Origin: a bacterium
Lineage (GTDB): Bacteria; Patescibacteriota; Minisyncoccia; UBA6257; MFKM01
DNA: 64,000 nucleotides
Direction: 5' to 3'
Assembly (NCBI GenBank): GCA_030693325.1
Contig: JAUYAV010000011.1
Span: 1,368-65,367 of the forward strand
The translations under genes were made by a program, and so were the position numbers. Below are positions 36,767 to 51,001 of this stretch, one piece after another. Positions within the stretch are counted from its first letter, which is position 1; each line of letters begins with the position of its first letter. The notes under the pieces were generated by a model that had not been told where the DNA came from, ran no database searches, and saw only the letters and a list, made by a program, of their open reading frames with translations.

Positions 36767-36837
36767 GCGGGTGTAGTATAGTGGCAATACGCGACCTTCC
36801 CAAGGTTGAATCGTGGGTCCAATTCCCATCACCCGCT
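36767..36837 (+). tRNA. tRNA-Gly (anticodon CCC)
   Basis: acceptor gcgggtg/cacccgc; D stem gtat/atac; anticodon loop ttCCCaa. Confidence 0.7.
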
Positions 36838-36845
36838 CAATAAAC

Positions 36846-36918
36846 GCCACCTTAGCTCAGCTGGTAGAGCAGCACTTCCGTAAAGTGAAGGTCCCGAGTT
36901 CGAATCTCGGAGGTGGCT
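36846..36918 (+). tRNA. tRNA-Thr (anticodon CGT), unusual C33
   Basis: acceptor gccacct/aggtggc; close to E. coli thrW (GGTAGAGCAGC...AAGGTC); anticodon loop tcCGTaa. Confidence 0.6.
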
Positions 36919-36923
36919 CAAAG

Positions 36924-37304
36924 TTAAAGAATAGCTGTGATATGAGGCCAGAAAACAAGAATGCCGATAACAATCGCCGCTAAAGAAACTACAAGGACGA
37001 TGGCCGCCAAAAGATCTTTGATAATTCGGACGCGCTGATCATCCGCCGGCTGAAGAAAATCTAAAAATCGCTCCATCACGGAGTTAATTAATTCCAGAAT
37101 TAAAACCGAAAAAATCATAACCAAAAGCGTGGCCTTTTCGTCCCGGCTGGTTGGAAAATAAAGCATCGCCCCGATAACTATCAAGGCAACCGCGAGCATA
37201 TACTTAAAAGCCGGCTCGTAAACCAAAACTGTCCAAATGCCTTTCCATGCGGTCTTAAAACTCAAAATAATATTTTTTTTTCTGTTATTTAAAAATTTAT
37301 TCAT
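36924..37304 (-). CDS. dgkA: diacylglycerol kinase / undecaprenol kinase DgkA
   Basis: AWKGIW..EPAF.., ILELINSVMERFLD align to E. coli DgkA; start chosen at MNKFLNN rather than the longer upstream ORF start. Confidence 0.75.
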   Translation of the reverse strand: MNKFLNNRKKNIILSFKTAWKGIWTVLVYEPAFKYMLAVALIVIGAMLYFPTSRDEKATLLVMIFSVLILELINSVMERFLDFLQPADDQRVRIIKDLLAAIVLVVSLAAIVIGILVFWPHITAIL

Positions 37305-37341
37305 TATTTTAAATCTAAAAATGAGAGTATAATAAGCATAT

Positions 37342-38037
37342 ATGATTAACCAAAATTCAACAACCATTTCTATTTATGCCGGTGTCGGAGGAGAAGACGC
37401 CAAGGACTGGGTGGAAATGCTTTTGAGAATGTATCAGAAATTCGCCCAGCGGAATAATTGGAAATTCCACCTGATTAGCAACAACGCCCTGGAAATAATA
37501 GGGGAGAATGTTTACGGCCTGCTTAAAAATGAATCCGGAGTTCACCGCTTAATCAGAATTTCTCCTTTTGACGCCAAAAAACTTCGCCATACTTCTTTCG
37601 CTTTGATTGAAGTTCTGCCGGAACTGCCGGAGCTGGAAGCAAAAAATTTGAATATTCCAGAAGAAGATTTAAAAATAGAACTCTGTCGTTCCAGCGGCCC
37701 GGGCGGCCAGAACGTCAATAAACGGGAAACGGCGGTAAAATTGATTCATTTGCCGACCGGTTTGTCCGCCGCTTCACAAATTGAACGCTCTCAGGGCCAA
37801 AATCGGGAAAAAGCCATGAAATTGCTTAAATCCAAAATTTTCAAATTAATGACCGAACGACAGGAAAAAGAGTTGAGTAATCTGCGAATCAAAGTGACTC
37901 CCGATTGGGGCCATCAAATCCGTTCCTATGTCCTTCACCCTTATCAGATGGTTAAAGACCACCGGACAGGCGTCAAAGTCAGTAATGCCAATGAAGTTTT
38001 AGAAGGAAATCTTGATAAATTCATCCAAAAAGGATAA
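37342..38037 (+). CDS. prfB: peptide chain release factor 2, N-terminally truncated form lacking domain 1
   Basis: SPF tripeptide (RISPFD), GGQ (SSGPGGQNVNKRETAV); only 231 aa; no room upstream for domain 1 or the +1 frameshift site. Confidence 0.75.
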   Translation: MINQNSTTISIYAGVGGEDAKDWVEMLLRMYQKFAQRNNWKFHLISNNALEIIGENVYGLLKNESGVHRLIRISPFDAKKLRHTSFALIEVLPELPELEAKNLNIPEEDLKIELCRSSGPGGQNVNKRETAVKLIHLPTGLSAASQIERSQGQNREKAMKLLKSKIFKLMTERQEKELSNLRIKVTPDWGHQIRSYVLHPYQMVKDHRTGVKVSNANEVLEGNLDKFIQKG

Positions 38038-38047
38038 TATTATTGTT

Positions 38048-38734
38048 ATGATAACTTTCCAAAACGTAACTAAAACCTATAGCAAAAATTCAACGGCTCT
38101 GGAAAATATCAGCTTCAAAATAAATCCCAAAGAATTCGTCTCTATTGTCGGCCGCTCCGGAGCCGGCAAATCAACCATCGTCAAACTTGTTGTCGGTGAA
38201 GAAAAACCAAGCGGGGGAAGAATCTTTTTTGATTCCCAGGAAGTCAATAAATTAAAATATTCCCAGCTTCCGCAATATCGCCGGCAAATCGGAACCATTT
38301 TCCAGGATTTCCGGCTTTTGACCGGAAAAACGGTTTTTGAAAACATCGCTTTTGCCCTGGAAGTGGAAGGCAGGCCTCAAAAAGAAATAAATAAGTTTGT
38401 TCCCGAGATTCTTGAACTGGTGGGATTAAAAGAAAAATTACAGAGTTTTCCATATGAATTGTCAGGCGGCGAAAAACAGCGGGTGGCTATCGCCCGGGCT
38501 ATGATCAACCAGCCCGAGGTGCTTGTCGCCGATGAACCGACGGGAAACCTTGATCCGTTTAATACCTGGGAAATAATCAAACTTCTGATGAAAATCAACG
38601 AAATGGGCAGTATCGTTATTCTGGCTACTCATAACAAAGAAATTATAAACACCTTGGGTCACCGGGTTATCACTTTGGACAAAGGGAAAATTATCAGGGA
38701 CGAAGAACACGGTCGCTTCATCCTTACTAACTAA
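38048..38734 (+). CDS. ftsE: cell division ATP-binding protein FtsE
   Basis: Walker A GRSGAGKST, ABC signature LSGGEKQR, Walker B LVADEP; adjacent ftsX. Confidence 0.85.
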   Translation: MITFQNVTKTYSKNSTALENISFKINPKEFVSIVGRSGAGKSTIVKLVVGEEKPSGGRIFFDSQEVNKLKYSQLPQYRRQIGTIFQDFRLLTGKTVFENIAFALEVEGRPQKEINKFVPEILELVGLKEKLQSFPYELSGGEKQRVAIARAMINQPEVLVADEPTGNLDPFNTWEIIKLLMKINEMGSIVILATHNKEIINTLGHRVITLDKGKIIRDEEHGRFILTN

Positions 38735-38746
38735 AAAATAAAATAA

Positions 38747-39655
38747 ATGTTTCTTACTCTTTCGCGGATAATTAAATACGGATTTAAAAATTTTTTAAGA
38801 AACGGATGGCTAAGCACGGCCACTATTGCGGTTATGTTTTTGGCTCTTTTTGTTTTACAAGGTTTGATAATTTTTAATGTCGTCGCCAAAACCGCCATCA
38901 CTTCCGTCCAGAATAAAATTGATATCAGCGTTTATTTCAAAAGCAATGTCGCCGAAGACGAAATTTTAAATCTCAAAAAATCCCTGGAAGGATTAAGCGA
39001 AGTCAAAAAAGTGGAATATATTTCCCAAGACCAGGCCTTAGCCGAATTTAAGGCCCGCCATCAAGAAAATTCAGCCGTCTCTCAGGCCATAGAGGTGATC
39101 GGGACAAATCCGCTTCTTTCTTCTCTTAATATAAAAGCCAATAATCCCAAAGAGTACGCCGCCATCGCCGACTATCTCAATAACCAATCCCTTTCGCCAA
39201 TAATTGAAAAAGTAAGTTACGCCCAGAACCAGGTAGTAATCAACCGGTTAATCAGTATTGTTGATACCGCAAAAAGCGGAGGCATAATCCTCTCAATTAT
39301 CGCCGCCATAATTGCCGTTTTAGTGGCTTTTAATACCATCCGGCTGGCGATCTACACCAACCGGGACGCCATTGGTATTATGAGAGTGGTAGGCGCTTCT
39401 AATAATTTTATTCGCGGCCCCTACATTGTTGAAGGAGTTCTTTATGGAATTTTAGCCGCCGTTTTAAGCTTTGCCGTGATAGTGCCTTTGATCACTTATG
39501 CCTCTCCTTATGTGAATAATTTCATTCCGGATATGAATCTTCAAACTTACTTTGCTTCAAATTTTTTACGTCTTTTGGGCTATCAGCTTCTTTTCGGAAT
39601 CATTCTAGGCACTGTTTCCAGCTTCATCGCCGTCCGCCGCCATTTGCAAATTTAA
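38747..39655 (+). CDS. ftsX: cell division permease FtsX
   Basis: 4-TM FtsX topology with large periplasmic loop; follows ftsE. Confidence 0.85.
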   Translation: MFLTLSRIIKYGFKNFLRNGWLSTATIAVMFLALFVLQGLIIFNVVAKTAITSVQNKIDISVYFKSNVAEDEILNLKKSLEGLSEVKKVEYISQDQALAEFKARHQENSAVSQAIEVIGTNPLLSSLNIKANNPKEYAAIADYLNNQSLSPIIEKVSYAQNQVVINRLISIVDTAKSGGIILSIIAAIIAVLVAFNTIRLAIYTNRDAIGIMRVVGASNNFIRGPYIVEGVLYGILAAVLSFAVIVPLITYASPYVNNFIPDMNLQTYFASNFLRLLGYQLLFGIILGTVSSFIAVRRHLQI

Positions 39656-46786: not shown

Positions 46787-47749
46787 CTATTTTTCCGATT
46801 TTATTTTATTCAGAATCTCTTTCACTTTTTCCAAACTGTCCCAATCATAAACGGAAATCGGGAGAACATTTTTGTTAATTTTTTTCAGGGCGGTGATTTT
46901 CTTTTTTATTTCTTTTGCCGGCATTGTGTCGCTTTTGCTCAAAAATACATATTCAATTTTCTTTATCAGCTCTTTACTGTATGTTTTGAGCTCATTTTTG
47001 ATTATTTTGTAATCTTTCACGGGATTTTCCGATTCCGCGGAAATTAAATGAAAAAGAATTTTTGTGCGTTCAATGTGGCGGAGAAATTTTATGCCCAAAC
47101 CTTTGCCGCCTGACGCGCCTTCAATAAGCCCTGGAATATCCGCGAGAATAAGTTCATAATATACTCCAAGATTCGGCTCTAATGTAGTAAAGGGATAATT
47201 CGCGACTTTGCTGTTTGCTTTTGTAAGTTCGTTTATCAAACTGGATTTTCCCGCGTTCGGCAATCCTATGAGACCCACGTCAGCTATGAGTTTGAGTTCT
47301 AATCTTAGAGTGAACTGCTCGCCGGGTATTCCTTCTAGAAATTGCTTCGGAGTGGTATTTTTGGGAGAACGAAACTTAAAATTTCCTTTTCCGCCGTGGC
47401 CGCCTTTTGCGATGAAAATTCTCTCGCCGATTTTTAATACTTCTTCGGTTTTCCCCGTCTCAATTTTTTGGATTATCGTTCCCACGGGAACTTTTAAAAC
47501 AATATCGCTTCCGTCAGGGCCGTCTCTGAATTGCCCTTGCCCGTTTGAGCCATCTATGGCCTTAATATTTTTTTTGTATCTGAACTGGCTCAAGGCATTT
47601 AAGTCGGAAACGCCTTCAAAATAAATACTGCCGCCGCGACCGCCGCTTCCGCCAACTGGGCCCAAACTCATCATATTTTTGTTGAAAGCCACGGCGCCTC
47701 TGCCACCGTTACCGGCTTCAACTTTAATTGTTACGTCGTCAATTAACAT
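46787..47749 (-). CDS. obg: GTPase Obg/CgtA
   Basis: Obg fold MLIDDVTIKVEAGNGGRGAVAF, GGRGG repeats; G1 GLPNAGKSS. Confidence 0.9.
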   Translation of the reverse strand: MLIDDVTIKVEAGNGGRGAVAFNKNMMSLGPVGGSGGRGGSIYFEGVSDLNALSQFRYKKNIKAIDGSNGQGQFRDGPDGSDIVLKVPVGTIIQKIETGKTEEVLKIGERIFIAKGGHGGKGNFKFRSPKNTTPKQFLEGIPGEQFTLRLELKLIADVGLIGLPNAGKSSLINELTKANSKVANYPFTTLEPNLGVYYELILADIPGLIEGASGGKGLGIKFLRHIERTKILFHLISAESENPVKDYKIIKNELKTYSKELIKKIEYVFLSKSDTMPAKEIKKKITALKKINKNVLPISVYDWDSLEKVKEILNKIKSEK

Positions 47750-47813
47750 AAAAACAGTATAAGCGTTCTTCGGAGGTTATCCTAACGGCCAAACTAGCCG
47801 CGTCTTGGTATTT

Positions 47814-48710
47814 TTAACCGATACGCTGGATTATCTCTTTTATGCTTTTAACTAAACCGTTCTCAAAATTTACCTTAGGTTCCCAGCCGAGATGTTTTTT
47901 TGCCTTGGTATAACTGCCCCAAAAGCCGGAAACATCGTAAGAACGCTCCGGAATATTAACTATTTTTGAGCGACTTTCCGTGATTTTTATTATGAGTTTT
48001 GCAAGATCATAGAGCGAGATAGGATTGTTGGCGCTTAGAGTGAAGTCATCGCAAAAGCCATTCGGCTTATTTTTAACATACCCGATAGTTTTATTCACTC
48101 CATTAATTACGTCATCAATATAAACAAAATCAAACATCTTCTTCTTGCCGTTGCCCTCAAGAGTTATCGGCTTATTCTTCAAGGCGAGAATTATGAAACG
48201 GGGGATAACCCGGTCCAGAATATCGTCGGCTCCGGTATAAACCCCGCAAAAGCGCAGAATGAGCGCGCGCAAGCCGTAATTACGGGCGTACTGTTGCATT
48301 AGATCTTCGCCGGCAACCTTGGAAACGGCGTAGGCGTTCAAAGGCAGACGCAAACTTTTTTCGGTTACTGGAAATTTGGTATGACCGCCATAAACCTCTC
48401 GGCTTGATGAAAATACCACCCATGCCTTCGGATTTTTCTTTCTTACCGCTTCAAGAACGTTTGCCGTCCCGCCGATATTCGTCGTAAGGCAAGTATGCGG
48501 ATCTATGAACGCAACCTTCGGCCGCGATATGGCCGCAAGATGAATAACTCCGGAAACGCCCCTGACCGCTCTCTCTAATCGCGCTAAGTCGCGAACGTCA
48601 TCTTTGGGATTATTTTTTATGTCGTAATTAATAAATGAATAAATATGGCCGAGCTTGCGCCTAAGGCAAGTGCCAACATATCCCGAACCGCCTGTAAGTA
48701 ATATTTTCAT
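47814..48710 (-). CDS. NAD-dependent epimerase/dehydratase (UDP-sugar 4-epimerase-like SDR)
   Basis: GGSGYVG Rossmann motif; YAVSK catalytic motif. Confidence 0.8.
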   Translation of the reverse strand: MKILLTGGSGYVGTCLRRKLGHIYSFINYDIKNNPKDDVRDLARLERAVRGVSGVIHLAAISRPKVAFIDPHTCLTTNIGGTANVLEAVRKKNPKAWVVFSSSREVYGGHTKFPVTEKSLRLPLNAYAVSKVAGEDLMQQYARNYGLRALILRFCGVYTGADDILDRVIPRFIILALKNKPITLEGNGKKKMFDFVYIDDVINGVNKTIGYVKNKPNGFCDDFTLSANNPISLYDLAKLIIKITESRSKIVNIPERSYDVSGFWGSYTKAKKHLGWEPKVNFENGLVKSIKEIIQRIG

Positions 48711-48721
48711 AAATTTAGCTG

Positions 48722-48790
48722 CGGGGCTAGGAATCGGACCTAGATTCCATGGTTCAGAGCCATGTTGCCTACCATTAGCAGACCCCGCAA
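48722..48790 (-). tRNA. tRNA-Gln (anticodon CTG), short D-arm
   Basis: acceptor gcggggt/gccccgc; anticodon loop ctCTGaa; T-arm ctagg-tccgatt-cctag. Confidence 0.55.
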
Positions 48791-48796
48791 TTACAT

Positions 48797-49495
48797 TTAA
48801 TATACTCTAAATTTAATCAATTTTCTAAATTTTTCAACCTCTAATTTTTTACGAAGTCTAGTTGAAGTTTTTCTAATCTCGGGATTATAACCAAGTAATT
48901 TTAACCCATTCTCAACATTTTTTAATAAACTTTGGTTTTTATTGGAAAATTGAAAGTTATAAGTACATGTCGGTTTATGAACCGATAAAGAACCCTCCGC
49001 TTCAAATAACCCTCTTAAATATCTGATTAAATAACTTTGGTTTTTTAAAATCCAATTAGGAGTTTTTATGTTTAAACGACCTCTATCGCCTGAAGGGATA
49101 CCTAATCTTTTTGAAATTTCTTTTTGATAAAGACCGATTCTTATATTGTTTTTATTGTAAACCTTGCTAACTGTTGGTTTCTTATTAAATATTTGTTTAG
49201 TTAATTTAGTATAACGATTAACAAAACCTAAATTATTAGAGTTTGCTGAAATTATAATTCTTTCTGTTCGTGGAAATTTACTAATATTGCCGTCGCCAAG
49301 AACAACTCCAATATATTCCGCTAAATTACCAGACAAGGAAAGGGGAGGATAATTTTGAGGAATTTTTCCAATTCTTCGCATTCTTTCCCGCCATTCCTTA
49401 AAATTATCAATTTTTTTCCGCTTCATTGTCCTAGCTGTCCTCAATACAGAGGGATGTGTATCTTTAGTGAATCCTTTATTCCAACTTGACTTCAT
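48797..49495 (-). CDS. free-standing double-motif LAGLIDADG homing endonuclease
   Basis: two motifs LAEYIGVVLGDGNIS and LRGLFEAEGSLS; not inside any recognisable intron or intein; ends 7 nt from tRNA-Gln. Confidence 0.75.
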   Translation of the reverse strand: MKSSWNKGFTKDTHPSVLRTARTMKRKKIDNFKEWRERMRRIGKIPQNYPPLSLSGNLAEYIGVVLGDGNISKFPRTERIIISANSNNLGFVNRYTKLTKQIFNKKPTVSKVYNKNNIRIGLYQKEISKRLGIPSGDRGRLNIKTPNWILKNQSYLIRYLRGLFEAEGSLSVHKPTCTYNFQFSNKNQSLLKNVENGLKLLGYNPEIRKTSTRLRKKLEVEKFRKLIKFRVY

Positions 49496-49607
49496 TACGT
49501 AGTAATTTTACCATAAAAAGTATAAAATTACTACCATTAGACGACTAGGCAATATCTATTAATCTAGCATAATACTGCCAAAATCTCCTTAGCTTCGCAA
49601 ATCTAAA

Positions 49608-49632
49608 AACTAAGTCCAATCGATTGGACTTA
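49608..49632 (-). terminator. hairpin ctaagtccaatcgattggacttagg overlapping the fmt stop (same family as 30124..30152)
   Basis: perfect palindrome. Confidence 0.55.
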
Positions 49633-50490
49633 GGGTATTATTTGAGGTTTTCCGCCTTCAAATTGGATTTTAGTCAATTTCAATTTTCCGTCAACCAATT
49701 CGGCCTCCAAAAGTTTTACCCGTTTTTTGTTTTGTATGGAACTATTCGCGCGAATTAGAGAAGATAACTCTTCCGGAATTAAAATAGTCCAAACTCCCGG
49801 CTCCGGATTAAGAGCGCAGATTTTTCTTTCAATAATTATAGGATCATCCTTTTCTAAATCAACATAGCCATCTTCGGTTTTGAATTTTTTCGTGTAAGTA
49901 GCCTGGCTTTCGTCTTGCGGAAGGGGAGTGATTTCGCTTTTTAAAAACTTCGGCAGGGTTTCAATCAGTAAATATCCAGCCAACTCCGCCAGTAATTGCT
50001 GTAATTTTGAAAATTGAAAATTAGAAATTGAAAATTCCAATTTTCGCTGGGCGAAAATTGGGCCATGGTCTACTTTCTCATCCACCAAAAACAAAGTGAC
50101 GCCGGTTTCGGATTCTCCGCTAAGAATAGCCGATTGAATAGGGGAGGAACCGCGGTATTTCGGCAAAAGCGAAGGGTGAACGCCGATAGTTCCCAGCCGC
50201 GACATTTCTAAAATTTCTTTGGGAATAATTTGGGCGTAAGCGGCGACGACAGCAAAATCTATTTCGCCAATTTCTAATTGGAAATTTCTAATTTCTAATT
50301 TTTCCGGCTGATAAACTTTAATCTCATATTTTTCGGCCAGAACTTTAGTCGGCGGGGGAGTGATGATTTTTTTCCTGCCAACCGGCCTATCGTGGTTGCA
50401 AACAACCGCCGCCGGCGGAAAACCGGATTTAATCAATTTTTCCAAAATAACAGCCGCAAAATCAGGCGTGCCGAAAAATGCGTATTTCAT
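49630..50490 (-). CDS. fmt: methionyl-tRNA formyltransferase
   Basis: MKYAFFGTPDFAAVILEKL...; conserved def-fmt order. Confidence 0.85.
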   Translation of the reverse strand: MKYAFFGTPDFAAVILEKLIKSGFPPAAVVCNHDRPVGRKKIITPPPTKVLAEKYEIKVYQPEKLEIRNFQLEIGEIDFAVVAAYAQIIPKEILEMSRLGTIGVHPSLLPKYRGSSPIQSAILSGESETGVTLFLVDEKVDHGPIFAQRKLEFSISNFQFSKLQQLLAELAGYLLIETLPKFLKSEITPLPQDESQATYTKKFKTEDGYVDLEKDDPIIIERKICALNPEPGVWTILIPEELSSLIRANSSIQNKKRVKLLEAELVDGKLKLTKIQFEGGKPQIIP

Positions 50491-50492
50491 AA

Positions 50493-50999
50493 TTATATTT
50501 TTGCCGTTTCCTCTAGGGCTTCTTTGAAAAGTTTATTAGTCCTGTCAACAAAAAGAATCCCGTTCAAGTGATCTATTTCGTGCTGAAATACCCGTGCCGG
50601 CAATGCCCAGGCCTTAATCTTTATTTTCTTTCCGTTTTTATCAAAACCCGCCAGCGTTATCTGTTCCGGCCTTTCCACTAAACCCCAAATCCCCGGCACG
50701 CTAAGACAACCCTCTTCAAGCTCAATCTTTTCTTTTGAAACCTTAACAATGCCGGGATTGAAAATAGCATAAAATTTCGGCTTGCCTTTATCGCTTGGGA
50801 TTTCCGCGATAAAAAGCCGCCAGTCAAAGCCGAGCTGATTAGCGCTCAAGCCGATGCCTTTTACTTTTTTTATCGCCGCTCGCATTTTTTTGATTATTTC
50901 TTTAATTTCTGCCTTTTTATGTTTGGCGAAATCAAAATCAGGCGTTTTTCGCCGTAAAAATTTTTCTTCTTTTTTATTGTTGACAGTTAAAATATTCAT
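50493..50999 (-). CDS. def: peptide deformylase
   Basis: GIGLSANQ, EGCLSVPG, HEIDHLNG. Confidence 0.9.
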   Translation of the reverse strand: MNILTVNNKKEEKFLRRKTPDFDFAKHKKAEIKEIIKKMRAAIKKVKGIGLSANQLGFDWRLFIAEIPSDKGKPKFYAIFNPGIVKVSKEKIELEEGCLSVPGIWGLVERPEQITLAGFDKNGKKIKIKAWALPARVFQHEIDHLNGILFVDRTNKLFKEALEETAKI

Positions 51000-51001
51000 T
51001 A

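Follow-up and report, generated by a model that had tools for sequence, protein, structure and literature searches.

Homing endonucleases normally spare their hosts by residing in self-splicing introns, in inteins or in intergenic sites, and the question raised by the locus described here is how a gene of this kind came to stand directly in front of an essential tRNA gene. The locus lies in a stretch of 64,000 nucleotides (the window) from a member of the Patescibacteriota (GenBank assembly GCA_030693325.1, contig JAUYAV010000011.1, positions 1,368 to 65,367, forward strand), in which a free-standing gene for a LAGLIDADG homing endonuclease ends just before a tRNA-Gln(CUG) gene. Comparison with homologous loci showed that this adjacency is not accidental: the gene belongs to a family that is widespread in the ultra-small Patescibacteria and sits in front of tRNA-Gln(CUG). 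We consider it probable that the gene forms part of a free-standing cassette at the tRNA-Gln(CUG) locus, founded by an insertion into the tRNA-Gln gene itself and tolerated because the cassette restored that gene with a copy of its own. The cassette thus appears to have entered an essential RNA gene without the shelter of an intron or intein.

An endonuclease gene paired with tRNA-Gln(CUG)

The open reading frame (ORF) at 48797-49495 on the minus strand is intact, encodes 232 aa and is the only ORF of the cassette. Its product matches Pfam LAGLIDADG_3 (9e-10, 39 bits; cutoff, 22.5), and an alignment with 20 homologues displays the motifs GVVLGDG and GLFEAEGS. Among 79 homologues, D68 of the first motif (LGDG) and E165 of the second (EAEGS) are invariant, as are G63, G67 and G69; E167 is found in 78, the remaining one having D. 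An AlphaFold model built on the homologue alignment (mean pLDDT, 90) consists of two helices followed by two alpha-beta-beta-alpha-beta-beta-alpha units. When compared with the PDB by Foldseek, the model matched I-DmoI chains best (E, 4e-8; TM, 0.67 on target), followed by intein endonuclease domains, I-SceI, I-AniI, bI3 maturase and WhiA; a sequence search of the PDB gave matches to I-AniI only, and these were marginal. The protein is, as modeled, a monomeric two-domain LAGLIDADG protein with a predicted I-DmoI-like fold, and its intact catalytic residues make it look like an active enzyme that would cleave DNA. A preliminary description of the locus had read the ORF as a monomeric, double-motif enzyme, and the conservation of both motifs bears this out; it had also considered a decayed gene with its acidic residues lost, which the state of D68 and E167 (79 and 78 of 79) argues against.

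The start of the gene can be placed at 49495, since conservation within the family extends over the first 38 codons (MKSSWNKGFTKDTHPSV...); the public annotation (P0001, 194 aa) begins at Met39, that is, 38 codons late (window 49382-49495). A subset of the family is longer (~296 aa in P0082, P0094 and the long ORFs of loci L023, L060, L076 and L242) and has a 64-aa N-terminal extension with a CxxC...HxxxH pattern, which resembles a Ros/MucR zinc finger below threshold (E, 0.13-0.17) and may be an added DNA-binding module.

The homologues came from a search over 5.8 billion proteins, which returned 375; the best 120 of these 375 are 53-100% identical to the window protein over its full length, and the named ones are from Patescibacteria. 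The 80 genome loci that we fetched had been found by patterns demanding intact motifs, which biases this set toward intact copies. A tRNA-Gln(CUG) gene lies directly downstream on the same strand in 75 of the 80, and in the other five the contig ends first, a linkage that rules out chance adjacency. The spacer between the stop codon and the tRNA measures 0-39 nt overall and 0-7 nt in 58 of the 70 loci in which it could be measured. The linked tRNAs are of canonical form (U1:A72, G73), and compensatory changes in their stems set them apart from one another, so that recent copying of a single sequence does not account for them. No match to the endonuclease protein was found in PHROGs, nor, in a scan that served as a negative control, was a homologue found, among the matches listed, on 120 viral contigs with the tRNA-Gln(CUG) pattern, which was unspecific and picked up phage tRNAs.

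These results change the place of the tRNA in the account of the locus. The preliminary description had correctly noted that the ORF ends 7 nt before an intact tRNA-Gln(CUG), on which ARAGORN and Rfam agree, that fmt and an epimerase gene are the neighbors, with the fmt terminator hairpin, and that the ORF lies in neither an intron nor an intein. A covariance search of the flanks, which it had suggested, gave no group I intron, and apart from the tRNA no group II intron or other Rfam family was found in 47500-51000 even at E<=10. It had, however, treated the tRNA as a bystander and sought the target of the enzyme elsewhere or in a lost intron. That part found no support: the gene keeps the same partner in 75 of 80 loci and has a relic of the tRNA 5' part beyond its own 5' end, so that the cassette lies within the tRNA-Gln locus and tRNA-Gln is the most likely target.

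A tRNA-Gln relic and a putative promoter upstream of the gene

The relic consists of ~21 nt that correspond to the 5' strands of the acceptor stem and D-stem and to the D-loop of tRNA-Gln. In the window, a repeat finder reported it as a direct repeat (49531-49566 versus 48769-48804, the latter including the 5' part of the intact tRNA), and CTAATGGTAG occurs exactly twice in 64 kb, once in the relic and once in the tRNA, against 0.02 occurrences expected. The relic has the form TTGCGGGRTCGTCTAATGGTAG(G) upstream of the ORF in many loci. Its core, TCTAATGGTAG, was found upstream of the ORF with at most one mismatch in 60 of 85 loci (71%) compared with 0.1% of control windows, and with at most two mismatches in 80% of loci compared with 1.4% of controls. 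In 10 of the 11 distinct relic-bearing loci examined with ftsX as the upstream gene (L214 duplicates L017), the relic begins 0-6 nt past the stop codon of ftsX, a spacing equal to that between ftsX and the tRNA at many sites that lack the cassette. This core, near the junction, is better conserved than the distal part of the relic and stands at a fixed distance from the putative promoter described below. Relics of this kind could mislead tRNA or pseudogene annotation.

The anatomy of the cassette is solid: a relic of ~21 nt, a gap of 6 or 16 nt, an extended -10 element, 6-9 nt, the ORF from ATG to stop, 0-7 nt and the tRNA-Gln(CUG), making 834 bp in the window. The extent first given for the feature was 48722-49495; its lower limit falls 4 nt inside the tRNA, and the feature reaches upstream to 49551.

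The motif TGnTAnnnT follows the relic in 51 of 66 loci, with a spacer of 5-7 nt in 16 loci and 14-17 nt in 32, and the next ATG comes 6 nt after the motif in 36 loci and 7 nt after it in 7. At the commoner spacing of 14-17 nt, the part of the relic derived from the D-loop would lie near -35. Motif and spacing point to an extended -10 promoter that would give an mRNA with almost no leader. As there is no room for a promoter outside the ORF, the tRNA must be transcribed together with the endonuclease gene or from within the 3' end of that gene, where two weak promoter-like sites are found. In the ~296-aa subset, relic and promoter lie directly upstream of the longer ORF. In the window, an 11-bp perfect inverted repeat (TAGTAATTTTA ... 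TAAAATTACTA; 49533-49523 and 49510-49500) takes in both the end of the relic and the -10 element; it was not conserved in the other loci inspected.

Presence and absence at the ftsX/tRNA-Gln junction

In about half of the loci, the genes upstream are tRNA-Gly(CCC), tRNA-Thr(CGT), prfB, ftsE and ftsX, sometimes followed by pyrG, and the DNA downstream of the tRNA varies among loci, many contigs ending at the tRNA. The junction of prfB-ftsE-ftsX with tRNA-Gln is the usual setting and probably the ancestral one, and the fmt/epimerase setting is specific to the window genome. There, the endonuclease-tRNA pair lies 9 kb from the ftsX block and on the opposite strand; since the two genes have been separated from this block and are still joined to each other, they stay together through rearrangement.

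Relatives were compared for presence and absence, as the preliminary description had proposed, by using metagenome contigs sampled through FtsX; this set was independent of the endonuclease and thus unbiased but small. Empty loci, in which ftsX is followed by tRNA-Gln(CUG), numbered 36, with an ftsX-tRNA spacer of 2-5 nt in 17 of them; 4 loci were occupied, and 1 more was occupied but truncated by the contig end. The cassette is a presence/absence element at an otherwise conserved ftsX/tRNA-Gln junction, a distribution that we regard as solid, and its ORF is intact wherever it is present. On a neighbor-joining FtsX tree of 80 tips, in which genome loci selected through the endonuclease are mixed with metagenome loci selected through FtsX, presence and absence required at least 16 changes, compared with a mean of 26 and a minimum of 19 for shuffled labels; the distribution has phylogenetic signal plus many transitions. 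The nearest FtsX relatives of several carriers have no endonuclease gene.

The closest pair, L023 (with the cassette) and L273 (without), share 89% nucleotide identity over 2.4 kb and differ by the cassette. Their homology runs from ftsX through the first ~21 nt of the tRNA and then breaks at the D-loop/D-stem boundary, and the endonuclease-linked tRNA of L023 is only 66% identical to the tRNA of L273. Together with this break, the anatomy of the cassette strongly implies that the founding insertion was inside a tRNA-Gln gene, at the D-loop/D-stem boundary near tRNA position 21-23. In a second pair, L076 (with) and L223 (without), one compensatory D-stem pair differs between the tRNAs.

D-stem types and a proposed mechanism

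The D-stems of the three kinds of tRNA sequence differ in a way that may be a signature of immunity. The GTCT/GGAC type accounts for 37 of 66 relics, with 15 more having ATCT, and for 18 of 47 tRNAs at empty sites; among the endonuclease-linked tRNAs, it accounts for 5 of 78 by the strict motif and 8 of 79 by stem type, the others being mostly TGCT/GGCA (the type found in the window), GTGT/GCAC or GGCT/GGCC. The depletion in endonuclease-linked compared with empty-site tRNAs is significant if kinship is ignored (Fisher p = 1.9e-5). The differences lie at positions 23-25, beside the relic boundary, where the central bases of the target would be expected. This fits an enzyme that cuts alleles of the GTCT/GGAC type, with the carriers holding resistant ones.

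We propose that the substrates of the enzyme would be tRNA-Gln(CUG) genes that lack the cassette and have a D-arm of the GTCT...GGAC type, that it would cut them close to the relic boundary and that an incoming copy bearing the cassette would serve to repair the break. This assumes that Patescibacteria take up DNA. By supplying a replacement for the 5' part of the tRNA, or the whole of it, the cassette would leave the host with a working gene and no intron, and a compensatory variant of the D-stem in the linked tRNA would protect the carriers. Transcription of the endonuclease gene from its own promoter would run into the tRNA, and RNase P would release the tRNA and so set the 3' end of the mRNA. 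The relic overlaps the presumed -35 region; it may have been kept because it serves as an operator or a promoter element, or else as a left homology arm that moves with the cassette.

Sequence similarity was used to ask if tRNA and endonuclease travel together. That of the tRNA correlates with neither the endonuclease (rho, -0.04) nor FtsX (rho, 0.02), because the tRNA signal is saturated; tRNA identity rises only where endonuclease identity is at least 65%, as is predicted both if the tRNA travels with the gene and if it does not. At empty sites, too, the similarity of tRNA-Gln(CUG) is nearly uncoupled from that of the adjacent ftsX (Spearman, 0.14), and L203 and L205 have FtsX proteins 89% identical and tRNAs only 58% identical, which hints at frequent replacement of tRNA-Gln(CUG) alleles even where the endonuclease gene is now absent.

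Evidence against a homing cassette and alternative explanations

A number of observations weigh against the cassette as an actively homing element. The target and cut site are those that we infer from the comparisons above, and ~10% of carriers still have a tRNA of the GTCT/GGAC type. The tRNA is not always replaced, since those of L005 (with the endonuclease) and L204 (without) are 99% identical, and no co-conversion tract is visible in ftsX of L023, where identity to L273 stays at 84-94 per 100 nt all the way to the junction. In the same genomes, mean pairwise identity is 57% for the endonuclease, compared with 59% for FtsE and 42% for FtsX, and endonuclease and FtsX distances partly correlate (Mantel rho, 0.46; p, 0.0005). 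The highest endonuclease identity between species is 84%, with no near-identical copies shared, and a search of empty sites with spacers of 30-3000 nt gave no convincing decayed copies or relic motifs. The relic is often more uniform than would be expected of a neutral scar, and the acceptor part of the L076 relic mismatches the tRNA of its own lineage, so that in some cases at least the relic comes with the cassette and is not made anew. The better conservation of its core suggests selection on the relic, whether it serves as promoter element, operator or left homology arm. The pattern of identity, shared divergence and intact copies is more readily explained by a long vertical residence under selection than by a rapid cycle of gain and decay.

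Much of this would also be expected of a domesticated LAGLIDADG protein that entered the tRNA-Gln locus once, long ago, and has since been kept by the host, its absences being losses; the protein might regulate transcription by binding the relic, keep integrating elements out of the tRNA-Gln site or bind RNA in the manner of a maturase. Such a protein could be as conserved as FtsE and far more so than FtsX and could diverge partly in step with FtsX, and its genes would remain intact. Among 86 copies, 84 are single full-length matches with no frameshifts or internal stops (of the two exceptions, one is cut by a contig end and one has a divergent tail); every one of these 84 is intact, and the empty sites yielded no pseudogenes. 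The conserved relic core at its fixed distance from the promoter, and the presence of WhiA and bI3 maturase among the structural neighbors, also speak for domestication. We nevertheless regard it as unlikely, although it is the least improbable of the alternatives. About 90% of the relatives sampled through FtsX lack the gene and have a normal ftsX-tRNA-Gln junction, and close relatives differ in presence and absence. Proteins of the WhiA type have lost their catalytic residues, carry a C-terminal helix-turn-helix (HTH) domain and are universal in their clade, none of which applies here: both acidic residues of the catalytic center are invariant, the Pfam scan and the model gave no HTH, an additional RNA-binding domain was not detected either, and the WhiA Pfam models scored below their cutoffs.

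The homing cassette also accounts for the locus better than an integrative element would. In the latter case, a serine-recombinase element using tRNA-Gln as its attachment site would have brought the ORF as cargo, with the relic as an att repeat. In several loci, large serine recombinase genes do converge on the tRNA and extend into its 3' half, and the region past the tRNA is highly variable, with many contigs ending at the tRNA. We find this explanation very improbable, because the recombinase lies 3' of the tRNA, whereas the endonuclease gene and relic lie 5' of it; because a recombinase stands beside the tRNA in only ~10% of carriers and equally in loci without the cassette (L207, L213, L226 and L229); and because the window has no recombinase, its epimerase gene beginning 7 nt past the tRNA. 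As in tRNA islands made by integrases, a segment of the tRNA is directly repeated and the tRNA stays functional. In those islands, however, a recombinase is encoded and it is the 3' part of the tRNA that is duplicated and restored, whereas the cassette repeats the 5' part and encodes a LAGLIDADG nuclease only. The recombinase genes (Resolvase, Recombinase and Zn_ribbon_recom domains; L021:4715-6361(-), L022:1383-2996(-) and L075:4715-6238(-), and also in L207, L213, L226 and L229) have 3' ends that overlap the 3' half of the tRNA in L021, L075, L207 and L213. They look like integrative elements with this half as their attachment site, and such elements would account for the variability of the downstream DNA and for the many contigs that end at the tRNA.

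Least probable of all is that the ORF once lay within a group I intron in the D-arm, with the relic as the 5' exon of a tRNA whose ribozyme has decayed: the relic does end within the tRNA body, as a 5' exon would, and group I introns are common in tRNA genes of Patescibacteria (PMC13011429), but no intron model scores near the ORF at E<=10, the ~30-35 nt between relic and ATG and the 0-7 nt between stop and tRNA are too short to hold a ribozyme, the tRNA that follows starts at position 1 and is complete, with nothing left to splice, and the published introns lie in the anticodon loops of tRNA-Asn and tRNA-Asp and have HNH-type endonucleases (PMC13011429).

Relation to known systems

I-DmoI and the other monomeric two-domain LAGLIDADG enzymes have the same predicted fold as the window protein and one acidic catalytic residue closing each motif. 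Sequence identity to I-DmoI is only ~20%, and the window protein has an additional conserved N-terminal segment of ~55 aa; I-DmoI is encoded in an archaeal rRNA intron, whereas the window gene is free-standing at a bacterial tRNA locus. In fungal mitochondria, endonuclease genes have inserted into host genes (rps3 and atp6) and brought with them a duplicate of the displaced end. As proposed for the tRNA-Gln cassette, a carried copy restores the host gene and a non-functional remnant is left on the opposite side; the fungal cases concern protein-coding genes and their 3' ends, whereas the cassette concerns the 5' end of a tRNA gene on a bacterial chromosome.

The closest functional analogy to the behavior proposed here is SegB of phage T4, a free-standing GIY-YIG endonuclease encoded in a tRNA gene cluster, whose site holds a conserved tRNA stem-loop motif and which drives the inheritance of itself and of the neighboring tRNA genes (PMC2330249). 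Both are free-standing endonuclease genes beside tRNA genes, and like T4 genes of the Seg and Mob type, the window gene is intergenic, lies in no intron or intein and has a putative promoter of its own. SegB differs in belonging to the GIY-YIG family and to a phage genome and in spreading during co-infection, and neither a split-tRNA relic nor a one-to-one pairing with a single tRNA species has been described for it. The rRNA insertion sequences of candidate phyla radiation (CPR) bacteria and archaea encode LAGLIDADG_3 proteins with variable N-terminal regions (for example, I-ShaI) (PMC11270868). Host phylum and enzyme superfamily are thus shared with the tRNA-Gln cassette, but those genes lie inside 16S and 23S genes, often in group I introns, whereas the cassette has no ribozyme. 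The term tRNA does not occur in the main text of that survey (PMC11270868), and a survey of tRNA introns in Patescibacteria describes HNH genes in tRNA-Asn introns and never mentions Gln (PMC13011429). Our search of a literature library found no description of the tRNA-Gln endonuclease arrangement, and the family is apparently undescribed. If its target is as proposed, the enzyme would be a natural meganuclease directed at a tRNA gene and would drive the replacement of tRNA alleles in bacteria whose genomes are very small, and the unusually rich set of selfish elements in Patescibacteria would gain a third kind of target beside rRNA genes and anticodon-loop introns of tRNA genes.

A possible wider family of tRNA-linked endonuclease genes

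A profile search of 1.84 billion cluster representatives returned 56 clusters at E<=1e-30 and 1151 at E<=1e-10, and ten more distant LAGLIDADG_3 relatives were examined for a neighboring tRNA. Four (L281, L282, L283 and L284) stand 6-15 nt upstream of a tRNA-Gln, two of them CUG and two UUG, and one of the tRNA-Gln-linked relatives, seemingly in a non-Patescibacteria context, has a D-arm relic of its own. Three others (L289, L292 and L285; ~340 aa) stand upstream of a tRNA-Ser, two UGA and one CGA, the last read by eye at a contig end. In all of these tRNA-linked relatives, the tRNA follows on the same strand after a few to 40 nt. The remaining three, from archaeal-looking contexts (L286-288, L290/291 and L293/294), had no tRNA nearby.

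Small as a sample of ten is, it points to a broader class of free-standing endonuclease genes that are linked to tRNAs. We tentatively raise the possibility that this is a general, unrecognized class of LAGLIDADG_3 genes, each dedicated to one tRNA (Gln-CUG, Gln-UUG, Ser-UGA or Ser-CGA), that are free of introns, carry a replacement tRNA segment or allele, have their transcript 3' end made by tRNA processing and keep the displaced half-site of the tRNA as operator or homology arm. Such a class would span Patescibacteria and some other bacteria. Its members would be gene drives for tRNA alleles, which would explain why the similarity of tRNA-Gln(CUG) is uncoupled from that of ftsX.

Features of the locus and its surroundings

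The coordinates of the cassette and of the features around it are given in Table 1.

Table 1. Positions in the 64,000-nt window of the tRNA-Gln(CUG) cassette, its parts and its surroundings
Feature	Position	Strand	Remarks
tRNA-Gln(CUG), complete	48718..48789	minus	ARAGORN; Rfam 48719-48789, 53.9 bits; D-stem type TGCT/GGCA; putative resistant allele
7-nt spacer, stop codon to tRNA 5' end	48790..48796	minus	read from sequence
LAGLIDADG homing endonuclease gene	48797..49495	minus	232 aa; Pfam match, homologue alignment, model
Layout of the encoded protein			~55-aa N-terminal helical extension and two LAGLIDADG domains; catalytic D68, E167
Extended -10 promoter-like element TGGTAAAAT	49505..49513	minus	9 nt before ATG; putative endonuclease promoter
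tRNA-Gln 5' relic TGCCTAGTCGTCTAATGGTAG	49531..49551	minus	left cassette end; direct repeat with tRNA 5' part
fmt intrinsic terminator hairpin	49610..49633	minus	outside cassette; upstream boundary of cassette region
tRNA-Gly(CCC)-tRNA-Thr(CGT)-prfB-ftsE-ftsX block	36767..39655	plus	directly precedes tRNA-Gln(CUG) in many relatives, with or without cassette

The flanking genes were identified through Pfam as fmt (Formyl_trans_N and Formyl_trans_C) and an NAD-dependent epimerase gene. The ATG of the epimerase gene lies 7 nt past the 3' end of the tRNA (window 48710-48718) and obg follows on the same strand, so that the tRNA seems to be part of an operon, whose downstream epimerase and obg genes may also be served by the putative promoter of the endonuclease gene.

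The shared 'R-K-Y' C-termini of FtsX and the endonuclease were considered as a sign of a common promoter or a duplicated gene end; this idea was dropped, given the unequal distances to the tRNA and the presence of a similar tail in outgroup endonucleases. In the ftsX block of the window, the ORF that follows tRNA-Thr (37342-38037) resembles release factor 2 and encodes 231 aa, apparently without the usual N-terminal domain, and may be a frameshifted prfB or a short form that such bacteria commonly have; its homologues in related loci have a median length of ~274 aa.

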